A stretch of DNA of 64,000 nucleotides from assembly GCA_963823665.1 (NCBI GenBank), contig CAWGMQ010000008.1:1856001-1920000 (forward strand). Reading direction: 5' to 3'. The position numbers were made by a program, and so were the translations under genes. Source of the stretch: an uncultured Planctomycetota bacterium (GTDB taxonomy: Bacteria; Planctomycetota; Planctomycetia; Isosphaerales; Isosphaeraceae). Under the pieces are notes generated by a model. That model was given only the letters and a program-made list of their open reading frames with translations, searched no databases and was not told the DNA's origin. This document shows positions 38,220-51,889 of this stretch, piece after piece (within the stretch, counting starts at the first letter, position 1; the number at the start of each line of letters is the position of its first letter).

Positions 38220-40358
38220 TCACGCAGAACCGTCTCCTCCCACAAGGACGACAATAGAGCGTGATAGGACCCGGTATCGCAGCGAGGCCACCGCGGCCTC
38301 CTCGCCTGGGTCCGCGATGTCGAGGGGGCTATCGAGCCCTGTGTCGATCGCACGGCGCCAGCCGCCCGGAGGGCTCTCCTGGATCTCGAAGTCGAGCGGC
38401 TCGTGGTACGCATTGATCATGACGTAGAGGTCGCGGTCACCCAGGGACGCCCCGTGCAAGCAATAGGCAAGGCTGTGCGATTCGAACGACAGGTCGACGT
38501 CCGGCCCGACGCCGTACCAGCGGACATCCTCGCGCCAGAAGGACAATCGGCCGAGACTCGGATGAGCCTTGCGGAAGGCGACCATCCGCTTCGCGAAGCG
38601 GTGAAAATCGGCATGCCGCTCGATGCACGACCAGTCGAGCCATGATGTCTCGTTGTTCTGGTTGTAGGGGTTGTTGTTGCCGCGCTGCGTTCGAAGAAAC
38701 TCATCGCCGGCGGCGAACATCGGCACTCCGTTGGCCAGCAACAGGAGGCAGAAGATGTTCTTCGCCTGGCGCTGGCGCAGGTCCATCACCGCGGCGGGCA
38801 CATCCTCGTCTCCCTCCCAGCCGCAGTTCCAGGTCAGGTTGTCCGCGGCTCCGTCGGTGTTGCCGTGGCCGTTGGGCCAGTTGCGTTTCTCGTTGTAGGA
38901 GACGGCGTCGTAGAGGGTGAAGCCGTCGTGGCAGGTGACGTAATTCACCGACTCGAAAGGCCGGTGCGCATTGCGGGAGTTGTCGGGGAACAGGTCGTCG
39001 CTGCCGTAGAGCCGGAGCATGAGCGCCCCAACCATGCCGGGATCGCCGCGGACGAACCGGCGGATGTCGTCCCGGAACCGGCCGTTCCATTGGGACCACC
39101 CCGGCCCGGGGAACTGAGTCCCGAGCTGATAGGCCCAGCCGGCATCCCAGGGCTCAGCGATCAGGTGGACGTGGCGCAGGACCGGATCGGTGCGGATGGC
39201 GGCCAGGAGCGATGTGTCGGCGGCCTCGAGCGCGCCGCCGGGCCCACGGCCCAGCACGGAGGCGAGGTCGAAGCGGAAGCCGTCGACGTGCATCTCCGTC
39301 ACCCAGTAGCGCAGGCTCTCGAGGATCAACGTCCAGGTGCAGATGCTGGCGCAGGCCAAGGTGTGGCCGCAGCCGGTGTAGTCGCGGTAAATCGCTCGCG
39401 GGTCGTCGGACATCATATAGAAGGCGACGTTGTCGATTCCGCGGTAACTGTAGGTGGGCCCGTCCGGGCCGGCCTCGGCGGTGTGGTTGTAGACGACATC
39501 GACGATGACCTGGATGTCTGCCGCGTGCAGGGCGCGGACCATCGCGCGGAACTCGTCGCGGGCTTCACGGGCATCCGACGCATAGCCGGCGTGCGGGGCG
39601 AAGAAGTTCAGAGGCATGTAGCCCCAGTAATTGCCCTCCTGCGGGTCGAACTGCTGCACGGGGAGCAGCTCGACGATGGTGATCCCCAGCTCCTTCAGGT
39701 AGGGGATCTTGTCGATCACACCGGCGAAGGTGCCCCTGCGCTCGGGCGGGACGCCGCTGTTGGGATTCCGCGTGAAGCCGCGGAGGTGCATCTCGTAGAT
39801 GATCATGGTGTCCGGCTGAAGTGGCGGCGTCCGGTCGGGAACCGGGCCGGGGCTCGGCCCTGGTCGTGGCAGGACACCCAGTGGCGCCCGCCCCAGGTTC
39901 GAGCCCGGCCGCCTGGCGGCCTCGCGATCGAAGTCCGGCGGGAAGAAGACCTCCTTCGCGCAGGGGTCGAGCAGGATTTTCTCCGGATCGTACGCGTGCC
40001 ACATCCCCGGCCCGGCGGCGCGGGGCCCGTCGATCCGGTAGGCGTAGTACCGCGCCGCGCCGATATCCCCGCCGACCCGGCAATGCCACATCACCCAGGT
40101 CTTGTTCACCCGCGGATCCAGGCGAAATTCGAGGAGCGGGCGGCCGAGGTCGTCCTCGGCGAATAGCAATAACACCACGCTCTCGGCGTGCTTGGCATAG
40201 AGCGAGAAGTTGTAGGCTTGCTCCGCCTCGATCCATGAGGCTCCCGGCGGAAGGATCTCCCCTTGGGACCGGGCAACGATCGCCGACGGGGGATGAACCT
40301 GACCGCGGCGTGCCTGCCGATTCGACGTGATGAGAGTGGTTTCCGCTGTCATGAACAT
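38220..40358 (-). CDS. glgX: Glycogen debranching enzyme / isoamylase (GH13)
   Basis: NFSLYA, IYEMHLRGFT, NYWGY, DVVYNHT, DGFRFDLA, AEPWD, CHDGFTL.D. Confidence 0.93.
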   Translation of the reverse strand: MFMTAETTLITSNRQARRGQVHPPSAIVARSQGEILPPGASWIEAEQAYNFSLYAKHAESVVLLLFAEDDLGRPLLEFRLDPRVNKTWVMWHCRVGGDIGAARYYAYRIDGPRAAGPGMWHAYDPEKILLDPCAKEVFFPPDFDREAARRPGSNLGRAPLGVLPRPGPSPGPVPDRTPPLQPDTMIIYEMHLRGFTRNPNSGVPPERRGTFAGVIDKIPYLKELGITIVELLPVQQFDPQEGNYWGYMPLNFFAPHAGYASDAREARDEFRAMVRALHAADIQVIVDVVYNHTAEAGPDGPTYSYRGIDNVAFYMMSDDPRAIYRDYTGCGHTLACASICTWTLILESLRYWVTEMHVDGFRFDLASVLGRGPGGALEAADTSLLAAIRTDPVLRHVHLIAEPWDAGWAYQLGTQFPGPGWSQWNGRFRDDIRRFVRGDPGMVGALMLRLYGSDDLFPDNSRNAHRPFESVNYVTCHDGFTLYDAVSYNEKRNWPNGHGNTDGAADNLTWNCGWEGDEDVPAAVMDLRQRQAKNIFCLLLLANGVPMFAAGDEFLRTQRGNNNPYNQNNETSWLDWSCIERHADFHRFAKRMVAFRKAHPSLGRLSFWREDVRWYGVGPDVDLSFESHSLAYCLHGASLGDRDLYVMINAYHEPLDFEIQESPPGGWRRAIDTGLDSPLDIADPGEEAAVASLRYRVLSRSIVVLVGGDGSA

Positions 40359-40417
40359 CGCCGGACGCTGCCGGCTCCTACGAGGATTGTGGACATCTCG
40401 GATCGAGGGATTGCCGC

Positions 40418-41017
40418 CTACAGCTTCCCGAGCGGCCCCGCGGGCGACGGGTCAATCGGCTGGCCGACGTCCGGATAGACGCCCAGCCCGAGTTTCAGGA
40501 GCGTTCGATAATCCTGCATGGAACCCTTGATGAACTCGTCGCCGAAGCCGGCCGCGACGGCCGCATCCACGGCCGCGGTGAAGGCGTCCCGCGCCGCCAG
40601 GTCCGCCCCCACATTCGCCAGTTGCGAAAAGGAGTTCGGTTGTCGCGTGCCCATCAAGTCGACTTCCGCCGGCTCGTCGCGCAGGCCAAGGGATTCCATC
40701 GCGGCCGCGGCCGCGTGGGTCGTCCACACGACCGCCCCGACCGCCGTCTCGCGCACGTACTCGCCCTGCGCGATCGCCCGACAGGCCTCGACCTCCTGGA
40801 TCGCGGTGGGCACATCACGGCAGGGCGAGCACCTCGCGAAGTCCTCCGCCAGGCGGATGGCACCGTCGATGGCCGTCCGGCATCGATCCCTGTCCGGGTG
40901 GCCATCGGGCAGGAGGCCGAGGGATTCCACGCGCCGAGTGCAGCGGGCGGCCAGGGCGACGATCGCCCGGAGCGGTAGCTTCTTCAGGTCTTCTGTCGAA
41001 ATATTCGGGACGATCAT
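40418..41017 (-). CDS. hypothetical Ala-rich protein
   Basis: 199-aa ORF in operon position; LPLRAIVALAARC...LGLG.YP.VG.PIDP. Confidence 0.7.
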   Translation of the reverse strand: MIVPNISTEDLKKLPLRAIVALAARCTRRVESLGLLPDGHPDRDRCRTAIDGAIRLAEDFARCSPCRDVPTAIQEVEACRAIAQGEYVRETAVGAVVWTTHAAAAAMESLGLRDEPAEVDLMGTRQPNSFSQLANVGADLAARDAFTAAVDAAVAAGFGDEFIKGSMQDYRTLLKLGLGVYPDVGQPIDPSPAGPLGKL

Positions 41018-41130
41018 GATTCACCTCTCACGGATGGGGCTGGCATGGTTTGGTCGCTCCTCGATGAGTTGTGGATGACGGATAACGGAGACGGATTCAC
41101 CTCGGCCCGATATCTTACCGGCCGACTGGC

Positions 41131-43665
41131 TCAGGGTTGGTCCACGGGGCACGGCTCGGCGCCCCAGATGTCGCGGGCGTATTCCTGGATCGTGCGATCG
41201 CTGGAGAACGTCCCGGAGTGTGCCACGTTGATGATCGCCCGCCGCGACCAGGCGTCGGGTTGTCCATAGAGCCGGCCGACCTGCTCATGGGTCGTCAAGT
41301 AAGCCGAGAGGTCGGCCAGGTGCATGTAGTAGTCGCCATGGGTCAGCAAGGCGTCGCGGATCGGGCCGAAGACGCCCGGATCGCCCCGGTCGAAGGTTCC
41401 ATACTGGATCAAGTCGAGCGCCCGGCGCGTCTCGGGCTCGTTATCGTAATGGCAGCGGGGGTTGTACCAGCCGCGGCTGCTCTGGACCTGCTCGGCGGTC
41501 AGCCCGAAGAGGAAGAAGTTCTCCTCGCCGGCCGCCTCGGCCATCTCGATCGTCGCGCCGTCGCGGGTGCCGACGGTCAGGGCGCCGTTCATCATGAACT
41601 TCATGTTGCTGGTGCCGCTGGCCTCGAATCCGGCGGTGGAGATCTGCTCCGAGACGTCGCTGGCCGGGATCAGGCGCTGGGCCAGCGTGACGTTGTACTC
41701 GGGTAAGAACAGCACCTTGAGCCGCCCGCGGACCGCCGGGTCGGCGTCGATGACCGCCGCCACGTTGTTGATGAGGTGGATGATGAGCTTCGCCAAGGTG
41801 TAGGCCGGCGCCGCCTTGCCGGCGAAGAAGACCGTGCGCGGGGTCACATCCAGGCCAGGGTCGTCGCGCAGGCGGTTGTACAGCACCACCAGGTGCAGCA
41901 CGTTGAGCAGTTGCCGCTTGTACTCGTGAATCCGCTTGATCTGCGAATCGAAGATCGATTCCGGGTCGATCACCTGGCCGGTCGCATCGCGCAGCCAGCC
42001 AGCGAACCGCACCTTGGCCGCGCGCTTGGCCAGCCGAAAGGCATCGCGGAACGAGGGGTCTTCGGCCAGGGGGAGGAGCTTCTCGAGCAGCGCCAGGTCG
42101 ACAACCCAATCCTCGCCGATGACATCGGTGATGAGCTTCGCGAGGTCTGGGTTCGCCAGCAGGAGCCAGCGCCTCGGCGTCACGCCGTTGGTCTTGTTGT
42201 TGAAGCGGCCAGGGAACTGCTTGGCCAGGTCGCGCATCACGGTCGTCCGTAGCAGTTGCGAGTGGAGCGCGGCGACGCCGTTGGTGCTGTGCGAACCGAC
42301 GACGGCCAAGTGGGCCATCCGGACCCGCTTTTCCGCCTCTTCCTGGATCAGGCTGACGCGGCGGACGCGCTCCTCGTCGCCGGGGTGGCTCCGGCGCACG
42401 TCGTCGAGGAAGCGGCGATTGATCTCGTAGATGATCTCGAGATGCCGGGGAAGGCCGATCTCGAAGAGGGTGATCGGCCAGGTCTCCAGTGCCTCGGGCA
42501 GAAGGGTGTGATTGGTGTAGGCGAGCGTCCGGACCGTCAGGTCCCACGCGTCGTCCCAGCCCAGTCTGGCTTGATCCAGTAGGATCCGCATCAGCTCGGC
42601 GACGGCCAGCGCCGGGTGGGTGTCGTTGAGCTGGATCGCGACCTTATCGGGTAGCGCGTGCCAGTCGTTGCCCCGGCGGCGGAACCGCGCGACGATATCC
42701 GCCAGCGAGCAGGCGACCAGGAAATACTCCTGGACGAACCGCAGGCCCTTGCCGCGGGGCGTCGAGTCGTCGGGATAAAGGACCCGTGTGAGCGACTCGG
42801 CGGCGACCTTTTCGTGGACGGCGTCGAAGAAGTCACCGCGGCTGAACTCCCGGAAGTTGAAGTCCCGATGCGTCGCCGCGCCCCAAAGCCGCAGCGTGTT
42901 GATCGTCCGGCCGCCGTAGCCGACAATCGGCCGGTCGTAAGGCAAGCCCACGAGGGTCGTCGGGACGTCCCGGACGACCTCGAGCCAACCCTCCTTCAAC
43001 TGGAAGTCGCAATTCAGCCCGACTTCCACCGCCTCGCCCGGTCGGCCAACCTCCCAGGGATCGGGGCGGCGGAGCCAGTGGTCCGGGTGCTCGACCTGGC
43101 GGCCGTCGGCGATCTCCTGGCGGAAGATCCCGTACTCGTACCGCAGGCCGTAACCGATCGCGGGGAGCTGGAGCGTGGCCATCGAGTCCAGGAAGCAGGC
43201 GGCGAGCCGGCCCAGTCCGCCGTTGCCCAGGCCGGCGTCGGGCTCCGTCTCGGCAAGTTCCGCCCACTCCAGACCCTCGCGCTCGATGAACTCCCTCGCC
43301 ACCGATTCGGCCCGGAGGTTGAGGATGTTGTTCGTCAGCGACCGGCCGATCAGGAACTCCAGCGAGAGATAATACACCTGCTTGGGGTTGGCCTGATGGT
43401 ACGACTCGTCGGTCTTCAACCAGCGTTGCGAGAGCAGGTCGCGGAGGGCCCCGGCCACGGCCTCGAAGCGCTGGCGCGGGTCGGACTTCTCCGGACGGAC
43501 GACGTGGTCGAAGATGAGGTGTCGCTCGTAGGACGCATCGGGCGTCCCGCAGATCGCGACCGGCCCGCATTCGTATTGATCGAGGAGGGCCTGGGTGAGC
43601 GTGAGGGCCGGCTGGGCTGCCGCCTTTCCCTTGGGCCCCGCGGCGGTGGTGCGTTGCGTCTTCAT
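41131..43665 (-). CDS. glgP: Glycogen/starch phosphorylase
   Basis: YYLSLEFL, GLGNGGLGRLAACFLDS, IQLNDTHP, KRIHEYKRQ, EASGTSNMKF, FSSDRTI. Confidence 0.97.
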   Translation of the reverse strand: MKTQRTTAAGPKGKAAAQPALTLTQALLDQYECGPVAICGTPDASYERHLIFDHVVRPEKSDPRQRFEAVAGALRDLLSQRWLKTDESYHQANPKQVYYLSLEFLIGRSLTNNILNLRAESVAREFIEREGLEWAELAETEPDAGLGNGGLGRLAACFLDSMATLQLPAIGYGLRYEYGIFRQEIADGRQVEHPDHWLRRPDPWEVGRPGEAVEVGLNCDFQLKEGWLEVVRDVPTTLVGLPYDRPIVGYGGRTINTLRLWGAATHRDFNFREFSRGDFFDAVHEKVAAESLTRVLYPDDSTPRGKGLRFVQEYFLVACSLADIVARFRRRGNDWHALPDKVAIQLNDTHPALAVAELMRILLDQARLGWDDAWDLTVRTLAYTNHTLLPEALETWPITLFEIGLPRHLEIIYEINRRFLDDVRRSHPGDEERVRRVSLIQEEAEKRVRMAHLAVVGSHSTNGVAALHSQLLRTTVMRDLAKQFPGRFNNKTNGVTPRRWLLLANPDLAKLITDVIGEDWVVDLALLEKLLPLAEDPSFRDAFRLAKRAAKVRFAGWLRDATGQVIDPESIFDSQIKRIHEYKRQLLNVLHLVVLYNRLRDDPGLDVTPRTVFFAGKAAPAYTLAKLIIHLINNVAAVIDADPAVRGRLKVLFLPEYNVTLAQRLIPASDVSEQISTAGFEASGTSNMKFMMNGALTVGTRDGATIEMAEAAGEENFFLFGLTAEQVQSSRGWYNPRCHYDNEPETRRALDLIQYGTFDRGDPGVFGPIRDALLTHGDYYMHLADLSAYLTTHEQVGRLYGQPDAWSRRAIINVAHSGTFSSDRTIQEYARDIWGAEPCPVDQP

Positions 43666-44339
43666 GCGATGTGGTCCTTCTGCAGAGGGGAGGCTCTTCG
43701 ATCGTGACCGACGGCGGCGGCCATGCCGGGGCATCTCGCCTCGGCCGGCACGGCATGACGATCGTCGTTCCAGAGGCAGATGGCCGGATCCTCCGGCCCG
43801 TGCTCGTAGCCCAGGATCGACAGCGCGGCGGTGCCCAGCACGAAGCGGCAGGCGTCGCCCGGCGGCAGTCCCACCCACTGCGCGGCCAGCACGCGGAAGA
43901 AGTGGCCGTGCCCGAAGATCAGCGTGCGGCCCGGCATCGGACGAAGCCGCGCGATGACCCGATCGGCACGGGCGCCGACCGCTACGACCGATTCGCCGCC
44001 CGGGCAGCCGTCGCGGAAGAGGGACCAGCCCGGACGCTTGCTCCGGATCTCGGCCGTCGTGAGGCCCTCGTACTCGCCGTAATCCCACTCACGTAGGTCC
44101 GCGACGGGCACGGCCTGCTCGTCGAACCCGGCCAGCAGGCACGTCTGGCGCGCCCGTCGCAACGGGCTGACGAAGACCCGATCGAAGGCCAGGCCCCGGA
44201 GGCGGTCGTGCAGGCCCCAGGCGTTGTCCTCGCCGCGCTCGGTCAGGGGCAGATCCGTCCGGCCGGTGTGCTGGCGGCTGATCGTCCATGCCGTCTCGCC
44301 GTGCCGTGCCAGGTAGACTGCCGGCAGTGTCGCGCTCAT
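43662..44339 (-). CDS. Histidine phosphatase (phosphoglycerate mutase family)
   Basis: RHGET.W, HTGRTD, SPLRRA, EWDYG.YEG, GHGHF. Confidence 0.92.
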   Translation of the reverse strand: MSATLPAVYLARHGETAWTISRQHTGRTDLPLTERGEDNAWGLHDRLRGLAFDRVFVSPLRRARQTCLLAGFDEQAVPVADLREWDYGEYEGLTTAEIRSKRPGWSLFRDGCPGGESVVAVGARADRVIARLRPMPGRTLIFGHGHFFRVLAAQWVGLPPGDACRFVLGTAALSILGYEHGPEDPAICLWNDDRHAVPAEARCPGMAAAVGHDRRASPLQKDHIA

Positions 44340-44441
44340 CTTGCGGCCCTCGACGTCGGTTGTCCGGCATTCGGCCGGTCGGGGAAAGTCGCCTCGCCGT
44401 GAGAAATCAGTCGGAACGAGGATCTTCTGGATGGTGCTCAT
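44340..44441 (-). pseudogene. Universal stress protein N-terminal remnant, in frame with the phosphatase
   Basis: MSTIQKILVPTDFS is a typical USP N-terminus; similarity stops after 14 codons. Confidence 0.6.
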
Positions 44442-44465
44442 CGCGCGTCTCCATTCTGGAGGCCG

Positions 44466-46901
44466 TTACTCACCCGCCGGCAGCCTCCACTTCCAGTCGC
44501 GGATCTCCGGCATGTCCTGGCCGTACTTGCATATGTACAGCTTGTGCTCGATCAGCTTGTCGCGCACCGCCTGCTTGGCGTAGGCGGCCTTGCCCCCGAG
44601 CTGCGGCAGGCGGTCCACCACGTCGGCGACCAGGTGGAACCGGTCGAGGTCGTTCATGACCGTCATGTCGAACGCCGTCGAGATCGTCCCCTCCTCCTTG
44701 TAGCCGCGCACGTGCAGGTTATTGTGGTTCGTGCGGCGGTACGTCAGCCGGTGGATCAGCCAGGGGTAGCCGTGGTAGGCGAAGATGATCGGCTTGTCCT
44801 TGGTGAACAGCGTGTCGAAGTCGTGGTCCGAGAGCCCGTGGGGGTGCTCGGACTCCGGCTGGAGCTTCATCAGGTCGACCACGTTGACGACCCGGATCTT
44901 GAGGTCGGGGAGGTGCTCGCGGAGGAGCTGGACGGCGGCCAGGGTCTCCAGCGTCGGCACGTCGCCGGCGCAGGCCATGACCACGTCCGGCTCGCTCTCC
45001 TTGTCGTTACTCGCCCACTCCCAGATGCCGATCCCCGCCGTGCAATGCTTGATCGCCTCGTCCATCGTCAGCCACTGCGGCGAGGGGTGCTTGCTCGCCA
45101 CGATCACGTTGACGTAGTTGCGGCCGCGCAGGCAGTGGTCCATTACCGAGAGCAGCGTGTTGGTATCCGGTGGCAGATACACGCGGATGATCTCCGCCTT
45201 CTTGTTGACCACGTGGTCGATGAAGCCGGGGTCCTGGTGAGTGAAGCCGTTGTGGTCCTGGCGCCAGACGTGCGATGCCAGGAGGATGTTCAGGCTGGCG
45301 ATCGGCCGCCGCCAGGGGATATGGCGGGTGACCTTCAGCCACTTGGCGTGCTGGTTGAACATCGAGTCGATGATGTGGACGAACGCCTCGTAGGTGTTGA
45401 AGATCCCGTGGCGGCCGGTCAGGAGATAGCCCTCGAGCCAGCCCTCGCACTGGTGCTCGCTGAGCATCTCCATGACGCGCCCGTCGGCGGCGAGGTGGTC
45501 GTCGCTGGCGATGACCTCGCCGAGCCACTGCTTGTCGGTGGCCTCGAAGACGGCGGTCAGGCGGTTGGACGCCGTCTCGTCCGGGCCGAAGATCCGGAAA
45601 TTGCGGGTGTCTTGATTGAGCTTGATCACGTCGCGGAGGAACTTGCCCAAGGTGCGGGCGTCCTCGTTCATGACGCCGTCGGTCCGCGACACGGCGATGG
45701 CGTAATCGCCGAAGTCGGGCAGCCTCAGGTCGCGGAGCAGGATGCCGCCGTTGGCGTGCGGGTTGGCCCCCATCCGGCGCTCGCCCTCGGGGGCCAGCTC
45801 CTGCAGCTCGGGGATGAGCCGTCCCGTCACGTCGAAGAGTTCCTCGGGCTTGTAGCTGCGCATCCAGGCCTCGAGGATCTTCAGGTGCTCGGGATGCTCG
45901 GTTGGCTCGGACAGCGGCACCTGATGCGCCCGGTACGTCCCCTCGACCGGCAGGCCGTCGACGACCTTCGGCCCGGTCCAGCCTTTGGGCGTCTTCAGGA
46001 CGATCATCGGCCATCGCGGCCGCTCGGTGACGCCCCGCTCCCGCGCATCGGACTGGATGCGGAGGATGTCGGCGAGGACGCGGTCGAGCGTCGCGGCCAT
46101 GAGCTGGTGCATCGCCTCGGGCTCGTGCCCCTCGACGAAATGCGGGGTGTAGCCGTAGCCGCGCAGCAGATGCTCGAGCTCCTCGCAGCCGATGCGGGCC
46201 AGGACGGTCGGGTTGGCGATCTTGTAGCCGTTAAGGTGGAGGATCGGCAGCACGGCCCCGTCGTGCGCCGGGTTGAGGAACTTGTTCGAGTGCCAGCCGG
46301 TGGCCAGCGGGCCCGTCTCGGCCTCGCCGTCGCCGACGACGCAGGCCACGATCAAGTCAGGGTTGTCGAAGGCCGCGCCGAAGGCATGGCTGAGGCTGTA
46401 GCCAAGCTCGCCCCCCTCGTGGATCGAGCCGGGCGTCTCCGGGGCGACGTGGCTGGGGATGCCCCCGGGGAAGGAGAACTGCTGGAACAGCCGCTTCATG
46501 CCGGCCGCGTCCCGCGAGACGTTCGGGTAGAGCTCGCTGTAGGTGCCCTCCAGGTATGTATTGCCCACCAGGGCCGGCCCGCCGTGGCCGGGGCCCGAGA
46601 TGTAGATCATGTTCAGGTCATATTCCTTGATGACTCGGTTCAGATGGACGTAGATGAAGTTCTGCCCCGGAGTCGTCCCCCAGTGCCCCAGCAATCGGGG
46701 CTTGACGTGCTCGAGCTTCAGCGGCTCGCGCAAGAGCGGGTTGTCATAGAGGTAGATCTGCCCGACCGCCAGGTAGTTGGCGGCGCGCCAGTAGGCGTCC
46801 ATGAGGCGGAGATCGTCCGGCTCGAGGGAAGCCCGTTCGATGCTCGCGCGGGCCTCACCGTAGGCGCTCAGTGAATCTCGTTCGGTTGCGACGGTTGCCA
46901 T
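44466..46901 (-). CDS. xfp: Phosphoketolase (XFP)
   Basis: [54 protein letters not shown]. Confidence 0.97.
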
Positions 46902-47029
46902 GGTTGCCTCCGGAAGGGAGCGATCTGGATGTTCTCGTCGGTGCGCTGTTAACTCGCGGGCTTCTAATCTCCTATGCGTTCGGGGAGGACACCGTGGTGC
47001 GAGGACGTAATTACGCCGCGAGTGCGAGT

Positions 47030-47210
47030 GAGCCGGCATGCTCGAGGAGCACGCCCCGACGTCCCGCAACACGTCCGGGGGTCGCAGGCACATGTCGTGG
47101 GCCCGCATCACGACCTTGGACTGGACACCGCCGACCCGGTCCCCGGCGACCGGCACGAGACCGTCGGTCGCGCCCGTGGCCGTCGGATCGCCGAGGGCCG
47201 CGATGATCAG
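47030..47210 (-). pseudogene. C-terminal remnant of an alpha/beta hydrolase
   Basis: IIAALGDP...TDGLVP...GVQSKVV.RAH...VLLEH resembles esterase/lipase C-termini. Confidence 0.4.
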
Positions 47211-47886: not shown

Positions 47887-47984
47887 ACCGGGCAAGGAGA
47901 CGCGTGAGTCTGGGGTCTTTGGGGAATGCCCAGCTTCTTCATGTTTCGAACTCTAAGTGCCATTCGTCGGATCGACCGAGGCGT

Positions 47985-48063
47985 TGAATGCCGGCTTGAG
48001 GTCATCATGCCGCAAGCCGAGATTTTGCTCCGTCGTCGAAACCCTCGCATAGCGGATGATCAT
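47985..48063 (-). pseudogene. Second resolvase remnant (5' end only)
   Basis: MIIRYARVSTTEQNLGL; upstream 48055-48123 resembles 25877-25955 (GCCGCT.GAGT..AGAAACCCGTCG). Confidence 0.8.
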
Positions 48064-48180
48064 CCTCCACCGGCTGGCCGCTGGAGTAAAGAAACCCGTC
48101 GCAGTGGGTTTTTTGAGATGATGTGGCTTAGCGGCCGACATGCCTGCTGGCGCGCGATGCGAATAGAAGGGGTGCTCACG

Positions 48181-48952
48181 GTAGAGTAGCGGAGGGGCAG
48201 GCAAGCCTGCCTCCTCCGCCCTCCTCAAACCGGACAGACGGATTTCCCGTATCCGGCTTTACCGACCTATCTCGCTCACAGGCAATTCACAGGGGGATCA
48301 ACTAGACATTCACAAACGCCGCAGGCCGAGGCGTTGCAGCTTGGCATAGAATGTCTGGCCTTCCGCTGGGCGGAAGGGGCGTTGACTCCTCCTGTTTGGC
48401 CTTGTGGGCCAGTTTTCTTCTCAGTTCAGAGATTTCTTCCGTAGTGGGACTTTCGTCCAAGCGGATCTCCTTACTTCTGATGGAAACGTTAGGTCGGCAG
48501 GGGTCCTTCGCTCCACGGGAGTTACCCGGCTTCATCGCTACTACGGCCCCCTCCGACTCCCGGCCGTGCCCAGTGACGGTTATTTGTTTCCGCCACTAGT
48601 TGGTTGGGCCCCATGCCATAGGGTCGTCCCACACCGTCGGGTCTCTCAGGGTTTCTCGCGGATCTTTCGACGCCCGCTGTCCCCAACCACCCCGGGTAGC
48701 CCATCCGCTGCTTCTGCTCGTTGCTTCGCGGACGGTATCAGGTTTCAACATCTTTGGGAGGCTGACCACTACCATTGAAGCGTAACGAGGCCGAATCGGG
48801 ATCGCTTTCGCTACGGCTGACGTCTTCGCCTTCTCGGACTCCGGCGAGTGGGGTCACCCCCGCCGCCGCCGAGTTGGCTTCATGGTGAACGAGCAATTGC
48901 CATGGCCAGTTCCTTTCAACTGACGAGATCAACGAGCCTAAGCCTGACGAAC
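48181..48952 (-). mobile_element. Group II intron (772 nt) with internally deleted RT/maturase
   Basis: 5' GTTCGTCAGG; DIII GGAGTCGGAGGGGGCCGTAGTAGCGATGAAGCCGGGTAAC...GGAGCGAAGGACCCC; DV AAGCCGGATACGGGAAATCCGTCTGTCCGGTTT; DVI ending CTACTCTAC; IEP remnants LRRKLAHKAKQE and RSQRPFRP...FYAKLQRLGLRRL*. Confidence 0.92.
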
Positions 48953-49008
48953 CAAAGGCGCCAAGGTGGAGCAGGCGCGAATCGAACATGCAGGCTCTGT
49001 GGTCAGGT

Positions 49009-49293
49009 TCAGTTGAACGGCGGGAGTTCAATTCGACGGGTTTCAGGGATCTGAGGGATGGCATCCGGGACGTCGTTCGGGCCCAAGCTGGCACGGTGCA
49101 AGAATCGCGGGGCGGAGCGAGTCTGTTTATCGTAGCTGAGGGAGGCACGCCGTTCTTGCACGAGGTGGACGAGGTAGGCGCGGACGTCTTCAGGGCTAAG
49201 GTGCTCCGGTGAGGAATTAAAGAAACGTTTGAAGCGGGCGATGCATTGGACGTAGGTGTCGATGGTCTGCAGCGTGGAATTGCGGAGACTCAT
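49009..49293 (-). pseudogene. Tyrosine recombinase N-terminal SAM-like fragment (type found beside IS91-like transposases)
   Basis: LRN....TI.TYV..IARF..FF..SPEHLSPEDVRAYLVHLVQER; no catalytic domain. Confidence 0.75.
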
Positions 49294-49389
49294 ATCCCGC
49301 TTTTCTCAGCGTCAAGGAACCCGTCGCATTATCAGAGATGTTGACAGTGTCCTTTGTGTCCGTCTTCTCCGCGTCTCGGCGTGATGCAA

Positions 49390-51432
49390 TTAACGCGGGG
49401 CTCGCGCCGACTCATCCTTTCGGTCCCCATCACGGCCGGCAAGAGCCTCGATTCGCGCTGCGGCGATCCGGGCGGCGGCCGTGTCGGGTTCATCCCGGAC
49501 GATCTCGCGGTAGAAGACGAGGGCGCCCTCGGGCTTGCTCATCCTTTCCAGAGACTCGGCCATCTTGAGCCTCGACGCCGCAAGCCGCTCCTGTTGCGCC
49601 CGGGTCTTTGCAACGCGCCGGACGGGCTGGCCGGTCTTTCCGGTCGTCGGGGAACTTGACGAAGGGCCACGCACCGAATGGCCGTTCCCAGGATCAGCTT
49701 CCAGTTCGGGTTCGGCCGAAGGCGGTGCCGCCAGCGACTTCAGGAACTCCTCGATCTCCGCTCGCTGCCTCGACGATAGACCGGCGAAGCGTGCGGCCGA
49801 GTCGCTGGCCTGGCCCTTGTGGAATTTCACCGCGTCGTAGACATTCTCGGCCCGGCCATCGTGGAGATAAGGGCCCGAGTCGCGGTAGCCCCAGAGTGGC
49901 GGCGTGCGCCACTCCGACCCGTCGGCGAGGCTGGCCGCTGTCGGGAAATCGACCACGTGCGTACCTTGATAGTAGATGTCCATCGTGACACTGACCAAAT
50001 CGGGTCCCATGTCGTGCATGAGCAGGTCGCTGTAGATCCCGTCGATGTTACCGAGACTCGGGCGGTGACAATCGGCGCACCCGATGGACAGGAACGACGC
50101 CCGGCCGGCTTCGATCGCCTCGGGATGGGGTGAATCCAGGCGCACCGGGGCGGGGAGTGATCGCACGTAGGCGACGAGGGAGTCACACTCCTCCTGAGTC
50201 AGATCCAGGGCCGTCGCCTTCACGTCCGGGGCCAGCGGAGAGATCGCCTGCTTATGTCCGGGAACCTCCAGGCCCAGCTCGCTGGCGCAGGCGCCCAGGA
50301 CGAATTCCCGCAGGCTCGTCGTCTGGGCCTTCCAGCCGAATTTCCCGATGCGTCCGCTCTTCATGGTATTGGCCCGCCCTCGAACCGGACCCGGCTCCTT
50401 CGCGGCCGTTGCGAGCAGCACCTGGTCGGGAAGAGCCTCGATCAGTCCCAGACCGAAAAGGGGTGGTGAGTTACGCTGGGAGGCGACGATACTGCCCCCA
50501 GCAAGCGTCAGTTGCGTGGTGTTCCTCGATCGCGGGGCCGGGAGCCGGGCTTTCAGGTGAGACCGCCACTTCGCGTAGCGGGGATCCACGCCGAAGTGAT
50601 GCAGCACAGTACTCGGCGTATCAACCAGCGCGGGATGGATCATCCTCAGGGCATCCTCGTCGGGTTTGAGGGTGAACGAACTGGCAGTGATCGAGCCCTC
50701 GGCGCAGGAAAGGTTGTAAACGCCACGGGCATCCGTCGTTTTGTCGATGACTTGCCCGCTAACTGCGTTCGCGGCGCTGATAAGGTCAGCAGCGCCACTC
50801 AGTTCCGTCAGGTTGATCCTCACGTCGAATTCCTGGGTTCTCAAGGTCGTGCCCTTCGCCGTGATCACAAATCCATTCCGGAACCAGCCGAAGGCGGGAT
50901 CTTTTGAAAAGTGTATATTTATCGTTTTGGCAGTTCCCCCGTTGCTCAAGAGTTGAGATTGCTCAGGGGTAAGAGGCGGCAGCGGCGAGTGACTCGAGTC
51001 CATTCTGATCTCTACTTTCGAAGTTCCGTCCTCGATGCGCGTGATCTTGGCAGCTCCGGGAATATGGAGCATCCCGGTGCCCAACTCCCTGCCGATCGAG
51101 GTCAGGACTTCGACGTTCATACCCGCCGGCCCACCGCCCCCGACACCACCCTGGCCGTGGCAGGCCACGCACGAGGTCTCGTTGTACACAGGCCCCAGCC
51201 CGTCGCCGCCGTGGCAAAGCGGGTCATTGGGCTGCCACTCGTGCGTGAAGAGGTCCAGGCCCAGCTTCAACTGTTCGCGGGATGGTCGGGACGGCTCCTG
51301 GCCCAAGGCCCCGCCCGCGACCAAAAGGCCGACGATGATCGCCAAGGGTGCCCGGGCCCGTCTCCATCGACGGCAGATCCCCCTAAGAAGTCCCACAGCC
51401 TTGGCCGCGTTCGCGCCGGAGGGGCATGTCAT
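49390..51432 (-). CDS. Di-heme oxidoreductase (DHOR-like) protein
   Basis: GDGLGPVYN.TSCVACH, RNSPPLFGLGL, GKFGWKA, GCADCH, YSDLLMHDMG, EWRTPPLWG, YLHDGRA. Confidence 0.9.
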   Translation of the reverse strand: MTCPSGANAAKAVGLLRGICRRWRRARAPLAIIVGLLVAGGALGQEPSRPSREQLKLGLDLFTHEWQPNDPLCHGGDGLGPVYNETSCVACHGQGGVGGGGPAGMNVEVLTSIGRELGTGMLHIPGAAKITRIEDGTSKVEIRMDSSHSPLPPLTPEQSQLLSNGGTAKTINIHFSKDPAFGWFRNGFVITAKGTTLRTQEFDVRINLTELSGAADLISAANAVSGQVIDKTTDARGVYNLSCAEGSITASSFTLKPDEDALRMIHPALVDTPSTVLHHFGVDPRYAKWRSHLKARLPAPRSRNTTQLTLAGGSIVASQRNSPPLFGLGLIEALPDQVLLATAAKEPGPVRGRANTMKSGRIGKFGWKAQTTSLREFVLGACASELGLEVPGHKQAISPLAPDVKATALDLTQEECDSLVAYVRSLPAPVRLDSPHPEAIEAGRASFLSIGCADCHRPSLGNIDGIYSDLLMHDMGPDLVSVTMDIYYQGTHVVDFPTAASLADGSEWRTPPLWGYRDSGPYLHDGRAENVYDAVKFHKGQASDSAARFAGLSSRQRAEIEEFLKSLAAPPSAEPELEADPGNGHSVRGPSSSSPTTGKTGQPVRRVAKTRAQQERLAASRLKMAESLERMSKPEGALVFYREIVRDEPDTAAARIAAARIEALAGRDGDRKDESARAPR

Positions 51433-51889
51433 GGAAGCCTCCCGCATCAGAGGGTGAGATCCCGGAGCTCCGACTCGAGCCGACTCGCCGGGCCTCGACA
51501 GTCTACCACCTTCTGATCATACGATGCGACTCCTGGATGGGTGCGAAAATGGCTCACGCCACCGCTCTTGGTAGACCCTCGACACTTGCTGCACTGATGT
51601 ATCGCGTGAGAAGTGATGCGCCGACTGGTTCTGTCGTCACCAGGATGTTTCCCGCCGCCACGTTGAAGCCACTCGGCCCCGACGACTATCTTCTGCTTTG
51701 CCACTTGAGGCTCGCCCCCGTGTTGGGCCTTGCCGGAGGCGTCGTCGCCCGCACCTTTGCCGGTTGGCCGCACGGACATGAGGCGACAGGCAGCGGCGAA
51801 GCATCGTCCGACTAGCCCCAGGACGTCGACATGATGAAACCGCCAGCAAGCCGGACGTTCGCTTCTCCCCCGCGTCGATAGCACGGCGA

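Follow-up and report, generated by a model that had tools for sequence, protein, structure and literature searches.

A class F-like group II intron lineage and the degenerate tandem repeats in which it is found

RmInt1 and RmInt2 of Sinorhizobium (class D) are IIB introns that, lacking an endonuclease domain, home into a multicopy element with priming that depends on the replication fork, and their target is one conserved insertion-sequence site. The lineage described here, represented by one intron in the window (the whole 64,000-nucleotide stretch of DNA that was analysed), is unlike them in that its targets appear to be a family of degenerate arrays of 15-30 nt, with variants that are tracked across phyla. 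Three target habits have been distinguished among bacterial group II introns, namely homing sites, terminators and attC sites (PMC4424553, available text). Class C (IIC) introns, as presented in the accessible portions of PMC4424553, PMC7306698 and PMC12584367, are like our lineage in using multicopy non-coding sites and in having no endonuclease domain, but they recognise a hairpin, have a short EBS1 and lack EBS2, whereas in the lineage considered here EBS1, EBS2 and EBS3 all pair inside a direct-repeat array.

Class F introns (g2-g5) are reported to have a strong lagging-strand bias (PMC8919778, in the part available), and Ge.ur.I1-1, So.us.I2 and Pe.th.I2 are tabled as inserted in non-coding sequence (PMC3552965, available text). 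In the 5' exon of Ge.ur.I1-1 (class F / IIF; Nagy et al. 2013, PMC3753933), IBS1-like AUUCG stands not only at the normal position but also 9 nt and 19 nt upstream, and the two upstream sites serve as alternative splice sites, a behaviour left unexplained in the available text of that paper, in which the word 'repeat' does not occur. Ge.ur.I1-1 resembles the window lineage in its IIE/IIF RNA features and in its site spacing and repeat variant, which are as at locus L093 and at L237, an array arm beside a gene of the GxxExxY nuclease family; the likeness is drawn from published exon bases, outside our tree, and Ge.ur.I1-1 is full length whereas the window copy is ORF-deleted.

Among the named introns compared, the nearest is Ni.ha.I1 (class F g3; Toro and Martinez-Abarca 2013, PMC3552965), whose RT-X protein is 41.6% identical (E 7e-84) and likewise has no endonuclease; the locus compared falls inside the coordinates published in the accessible text of that paper. 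Unlike the window lineage, Ni.ha.I1 belongs to a separate, supported clade and has a transposase gene, rather than tandem mini-repeats, as its insertion site, and as sister g3 introns both it and L235 interrupt transposase genes. These placements come from a quick maximum-likelihood tree of 94 proteins, midpoint-rooted, from which four partial proteins were left out and in which L203 is a junk long branch. The tree was sampled outside the core class F proteins (Ge.ur.I1, So.us.I2 and Pe.th.I2) and class E references; the window lineage would likely belong in core class F. Repeat-type sites fall in a clade of 62 rows and in a separate clade of 9 rows, and these clades span, by record labels that may be mis-binned, Planctomycetota, Acidobacteriota, Verrucomicrobiota, Myxococcota, Thermodesulfobacteriota, Bacteroidota, Cloacimonadota and others. 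The named relatives closest to the window intron come from planctomycete assemblies, which suggests a planctomycete host. No such repeat target is named in the available text of the reviews and surveys PMC4424553, PMC12584367, PMC7306698 and PMC8919778, and we did not find the landing habit described in the literature searched, though Simon 2008, Michel 2007, the Zimmerly intron database and the supplements of Nagy 2013 could mention it.

Anatomy of the window intron

Reading of the sequence, together with Rfam, places a group II intron of 772 nt on the minus strand of the window, running from 48952 to 48181. The match to Intron_gpII (RF00029) covers 48181-48261 (46.1 bits, E 6.9e-6), and the boundaries match those of three full-length relatives in the same genome. 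The 3' end, AC, fits the AY end of group II introns; the 5' end, GUUCG, is one base off the GUGYG consensus, and the same start is common to five copies in another genome (G011).

All elements of the intron given here lie on the minus strand. A consensus fold built from 42 homologues, covering domain I and then domains II and III, places domain I at 48646-48947, domain II at 48559-48641 and domain III at 48500-48551. Domain IV (48261-48498) keeps an intact basal stem and remnants of both ends of an RT/maturase ORF. Domain V (48227-48259) carries the AGC triad expected of group II introns and domain VI (48183-48226) a bulged A at 48187, the putative branch point by its position; both domains were assigned from Rfam and the sequence. 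In the consensus fold alpha (48888-48895) pairs with alpha-prime (48715-48722) in 40-42 of the 42 homologues at each of 8 positions, within a six-domain fold. As in subgroup IIB, EBS1, EBS2, EBS3-IBS3 and delta-delta' can all be identified. Features of IIE/IIF RNAs are also present: alpha-prime lies in the terminal loop of a stem-loop (a IIE/IIF feature according to the available text of PMC3753933), the domain V loop has 5 nt, and the intron without domain IV measures about 535 nt, inside the 450-700 nt range of ORF-less length. Nagy 2013 also gives an additional bulge loop in DId3 for IIE/IIF introns; the d3 stem of the consensus fold shows a 2-nt bulge, which may or may not be its counterpart. 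The class C / IIC combination of a short EBS1, no EBS2 and insertion after a hairpin is not what the window intron displays; judged by its sequence, it is a class F-like RNA of IIB type that has lost the greater part of its ORF.

The three full-length relatives in the window's genome are 1,999 nt long, are 79-80% identical to the window copy over the first 519 nt, and encode a 429-residue RT/maturase in which TIGR04416 spans residues 34-403; the 26 residues left after this match leave no room for an endonuclease domain. An RT-X protein without that domain, as class F requires, is thus found in the three relatives, the window copy retaining remnants only. A contig of 1,566 nt from a soil run matches window positions 48179-48389 with 3 differences and then has about 1,285 nt of unmatched sequence before the match resumes at 48455. 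Given so nearly identical a full-length contig, the window copy is an internal deletion derivative, with its main deletion junction at 48390/48389 and, again relative to the soil contig, a second deletion at about 48433-48454. The copy was found only once in its genome, and in itself it is an ordinary decayed element: it would have inserted at one repeat site and then lost about 1.3 kb of ORF, and would be mobile only with protein supplied by a relative. Three RNA runs contain intron-like contigs, which are relatives of the window copy and may be DNA, and these were not taken as evidence of expression. Other ORF-deleted derivatives were seen at L185 (906 nt), L204 (803 nt), L085 (second copy, 702 nt), L203 (680 nt) and L045 (first copy, 669 nt), and in L085, L045 and G002 ORF-deleted copies stand beside longer ORF-bearing ones.

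Next to the intron lies a truncated N-terminal fragment of a tyrosine integrase (49009-49293, minus; PF13495, E 2.5e-12), of which paralogous fragments occur elsewhere in the genome, and on its other side is a short reading frame (47980-48064, minus) that we take, from a motif, to resemble the start of a serine resolvase and for which no Pfam match was found. The resolvase-like frame and the integrase fragment mark the region as mobile-element debris, part of which is duplicated about 28 kb away. Genes at 38220-47156 (minus) are presumably, as read by eye, those for glycogen debranching enzyme, glycogen phosphorylase, histidine phosphatase and phosphoketolase, and a di-haem oxidoreductase gene (PF06537) occupies 49390-51447. 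A second group II intron family is present in the same genome (G000) in eight copies (L029-L036) with an identical domain V score, at C3:189494, C3:1261461, C6:916125, C6:1323786, C8:517186, C8:675649, C8:1396090 and C11:561049; in each of these copies the flanks diverge only after an additional hairpin that resembles a second end of domain VI.

Exon recognition and the repeated target

Homologues were taken from the best 80 of 585 related loci and from family genomes, so that the set is biased to close relatives. The 5' end was located in 100 of them, 62 of which also have the 3' end, and 12 matches without a recognisable 5' end were excluded. In an unbiased scan every intron column was compared with every exon position over 90 rows and with no assumed structure, L081 and nine more rows with too little exon or intron being left out. 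The top ranks went to nt 266 with exon +1, to nt 198-201 with exon -2 to -5, and to nt 171-172 with exon -8/-9.

An earlier note on this DNA had proposed as EBS1 a stem-loop at 48745-48765 whose loop, CAAAG (48756-48752), is complementary to the last five exon bases. The sequences, coordinates and rebuilt junction on which it relied are all present, as is the stem-loop, and both the scan of 90 homologues and the consensus fold of 42 identify the loop as EBS1 (intron nt 197-201, 48752-48756), the terminal loop of a DId3 stem-loop (48741-48767) that also bears delta; a sixth position is an A-C mismatch in the window copy. Covariation between EBS1 and IBS1, put forward in the same note as a check, is borne out. 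Over 49 homologues with distinct EBS1 6-mers, pairing averages 4.29 of 5 positions against 2.36 when shuffled (maximum 2.90, 10,000 shuffles), perfect 5-nt pairing is seen in 30 of the 49 against a shuffled mean of 1.4 and maximum of 8 (again 10,000 shuffles), and each of the six IBS1 positions shows compensatory changes. Four poorly aligned rows (L206-L209) were left out of the covariation counts, in which three further rows had a 5' boundary 2 nt off; this works against pairing, and was corrected for the periodicity count given below. Because of kinship among the homologues, and because one genome contributes several sites, p-values from shuffling are overstated.

EBS3 (G266, at 48687) is in Watson-Crick register with the first 3'-exon base in 53 of 58 homologues, and delta (C196, at 48757) pairs with nt 161, which in the window copy is delta-prime (G161, at 48792, in the coordination loop), in 85 of 86. 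The four copies in the window's genome represent three EBS1 alleles, each of which fits its own exon. EBS2 (CGCU, nt 171-174, 48779-48782), which forms a bulge in the consensus fold, reads the G-YG junction of the preceding repeat unit: of 71 triplet matches, 56 end at -7, -8 or -9, corresponding to periods of 8, 9 and 10. In 32 of 49 the base in the middle of EBS2 is identical to EBS3 (p=0.0003; the mean of the shuffles is 21), as one would expect were the two to read equivalent positions in successive units.

Two further groups of homologues may be recorded here. Three Verrucomicrobiota introns (L070:947, L080:229 and L097:953) start with GAAAGCG, a start two bases longer than in the consensus, their boundary being set by EBS1 pairing. 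The five copies in G011 (L180-L184), which are the closest relatives of the window intron, agree with one another over about 900-1,300 nt and have an EBS1 displaced by two bases along the repeat unit; domain V is absent from the stretches of them that were examined, and the DNA beyond resembles serine-recombinase genes by eye.

The target is a degenerate direct repeat with the core NTYYG|YG and a period of 8-10 nt, the period at the window site being 8. There the 5' exon (48953-48965, with IBS1 at 48953-48957 and IBS2 at 48959-48962) comprises one and a half 8-nt units and the 3' exon (48175-48180, with IBS3 at 48180) the remainder of the last unit, both on the minus strand. Three intron-free paralogous sites in the genome, 84-93% identical to the 5' flank of the intron, continue in the same way as the 3' exon and hold an uninterrupted repeat of two or three units. 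Introns in tandem, 8 nt apart, are seen at L045, L072 and L104 and on one contig of run X1. The description of the motif in the earlier note as short, palindromic and REP-like does not survive: a REP unit is an imperfect palindrome of 20-40 nt, the units here are direct repeats of period 8-10, and palindromy is confined to pairs of arrays in opposite orientation. The multicopy repeats of Geobacter metallireducens (PMC2700814, available text) were likewise rejected as a counterpart, as their consensus sequences differ and they have no intron link.

Genome counts were made by pattern searches with a reversed-pattern control. The window-site pattern occurs 27 times in its genome against 1 for the control, or 55 times against 0 when one mismatch is allowed, in keeping with the prediction that the motif would be over-represented, and the pattern of the three full-length copies in the same genome occurs 23 times against 0. 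In other host genomes the repeat variant that matches the resident intron was counted at 136 against 0 (G119), 551 against 29 (G131), 397 against 99 (G133), 100 against 0 (G148) and 95 against 0 (G128). Few copies were found in some hosts (5 against 3 in G132, 0 against 7 in G147, 3 in G037 and 2 in G085), for which genomes are incomplete and patterns narrow. As judged from these patterns, the targets are degenerate tandem arrays of 15-30 nt, multicopy and non-coding.

Two observations stand beside these counts. One intron sub-clade (in G119, G073, G085 and G126) targets another abundant repeat, of the type TTGG(G/C)TT(C/T)G, present in up to 366 copies, and the period at TTGG(G/C)TTCG-type targets differs from that of the 8-10-nt units; the link to GxxExxY genes described below concerns the latter. 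At L166 (G000:C5, about 1067575-1067595, minus), ten bases equal to the 3' end of the full-length introns lie directly before a three-unit array, possibly as the scar of a deleted intron and possibly by chance.

Taken together, we consider it probable, at roughly 0.8, that the window intron derives by ORF deletion from a class F-like intron without an endonuclease, of a lineage that homes to degenerate 8-10-nt tandem repeats (NTYYG|YG) that are multicopy and non-coding. Sequence comparison demonstrates that two adjacent units are recognised by base pairing, that the lineage retargets among variants and that empty sites exist in multiple copies. By sequence, EBS1 and EBS3 between them read one unit across the G|Y junction and EBS2 reads the corresponding junction of the unit upstream, so that two adjacent units make up a complete target, and the EBS sequences shift together with the repeat variant. 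That the lineage uses a multicopy repeat, as had been suggested, stands as far as repeat targeting is concerned, but not with respect to a single fixed motif: the lineage is not tied to one motif and switches among repeat variants.

As to mechanism, excised intron RNA with its protein would reverse-splice into the strand rich in pyrimidines, which would probably be single-stranded DNA at the fork, and nascent DNA would serve as primer, as established for introns without an endonuclease domain (PMC4424553, available text) and in line with the lagging-strand bias reported for class F g2-g5 introns (PMC8919778, in the part available). We infer that the lineage stays on the repeats because these are abundant, lie outside genes and have variants one or two EBS changes apart; persistence through abundance, neutrality and short mutational steps thus seems to us quite likely, and the repeat array may plausibly act as a safe harbour.

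GxxExxY nuclease genes and alternative readings of the sites

The GxxExxY family (TIGR04256 / PF13366 PDDEXK_3) is encoded by 32 of the 35 genomes searched, all of them intron hosts. We counted tandem NTYYGYK units with 8-10 nt spacing within 150 nt of 39 GxxExxY loci from the window's genome and other host genomes; units are near 25 of the 39, on both sides in 17, as against 13 of 395 control windows. The units that bracket these genes are mostly inverted arms and their variants are those used by introns, the window's own variant flanking GxxExxY genes at L251, L258 and L259. One full-length intron copy in the window's genome sits in a repeat directly before a TIGR04256 gene. Around the introns themselves, an inverted partner array is present upstream at 17 of 71 sites and downstream at only 4 of 44. 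Neither a function nor a flanking repeat was found for GxxExxY, TIGR04256 or PF13366 in the literature searched.

These associations, and the fact that the lineage keeps its repeat type across many phyla while EBS sequences turn over, would be understandable if the intron depended, beyond base pairing, on the GxxExxY nuclease and the arms, with a nick or an extruded hairpin giving strand access or a primer. We regard such dependence as unlikely. A GxxExxY gene lies within 900 nt of only 2 of 82 intron sites, so that a rule by which the intron directly adjoins such a gene was rejected, and within 900 nt of none of the 27 loci of the window's repeat variant; most intron sites are arrays without the gene. 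A partner arm within about 400 nt is absent at 54 of 71 sites, and priming at the fork would already be enough without a nuclease. Our expectation is no higher for the proposal that this cross-phylum lineage lives as a dedicated parasite on an undescribed system of nuclease and repeats, in which EBS2, EBS1 and EBS3 would form a tandem-repeat reader and GxxExxY cleavage or arm extrusion would replace the missing endonuclease in giving strand access or priming.

The window itself contains a second array, which belongs to the same 8-nt family but is oppositely oriented (49367-49384, plus; 13 of 18 bases identical to the rebuilt site, by eye). This is the inverted sibling that had been reported, and it is the sole other match of four repeat patterns in the window. 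Lying about 415 nt away, it is not counted among the 17 of 71, and it is possibly the partner arm of the intron's array; the pair encloses the tyrosine-integrase fragment, not a GxxExxY gene.

Less probable again is that no repeat is targeted, and that the repeat-looking flanks are merely what ordinary homing produces when IBS1 is rich in pyrimidines and IBS2 resembles it, since the requirements of EBS1 and EBS2 will force some similarity one period apart. The similarity, however, extends to positions mostly untouched by EBS2: exon positions -5 to -2 are like those one period (8, 9 or 10) upstream at at least three of four bases in 53 of 81 sites (65%); the corresponding shares are 19% among 24,926 control positions and 14.5% among 457 controls matched for NTYYG. 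A strict tandem pair is found at 25 of 52 rebuilt sites and in 1 of 578 control windows. The remaining 27 of 52 fail this strict test, a point in favour of homing without repeat targeting. About half of the homologous introns have flanks of the same repeat type; on flanks, over-representation and DId3 position alike, the conditions that would have refuted the earlier note turned out in its favour. The motifs also form genome-wide families without introns, to which the empty paralogous sites add intact examples. We conclude that homing without repeat targeting is largely refuted for the window site and for the strict half, and that it may hold for the sites, roughly 15 of 81, that look unrelated by eye (for example L043, L052, L053, L075, L094, L109 and L112).

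Recognition in the manner of class C, with the intron or its protein reading a DNA hairpin of REP, terminator or attC type beside the site, is very improbable even though arrays often form inverted pairs and the window's sibling lies about 400 nt off, for a full EBS1 of 5-6 nt, EBS2 and the AGC triad are present, no stem-loop is seen by eye directly 5' of IBS1, the site is inside an arm and not after a hairpin, and the protein, which is closest to those of class F, stands apart from any hairpin rule; the analogy with attC- or terminator-targeting introns drawn in the earlier note accordingly fails on mechanism, because full EBS1, EBS2 and EBS3 read the target by base pairing.

Implications for group II intron targeting

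Homing to tandem repeats thus appears to be a real and non-trivial habit, apparently unpublished at the level of the lineage, though assembled from standard parts. To the described habits the lineage adds base-pair homing at a family of tandem arrays, maintained in many phyla through changes of EBS sequence, and the three EBS1 alleles in one genome constitute a natural record of intron retargeting. EBS2 is dispensable for in vitro splicing of two other IIE/IIF introns (PMC3753933, available text), and reading of the preceding repeat unit suggests a role for it. For the biochemically studied class F intron Ge.ur.I1-1, targeting of a repeat array would, by analogy, offer a simple account of the alternative splice sites. 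A link between the intron and the orphan GxxExxY nuclease family, absent from the earlier note, also emerges from the analysis. Should the lineage prove to be a parasite of a nuclease-plus-repeat system, bacterial group II introns would have a fourth kind of target specificity, and the point of intron insertion would mark the substrate of the nuclease.
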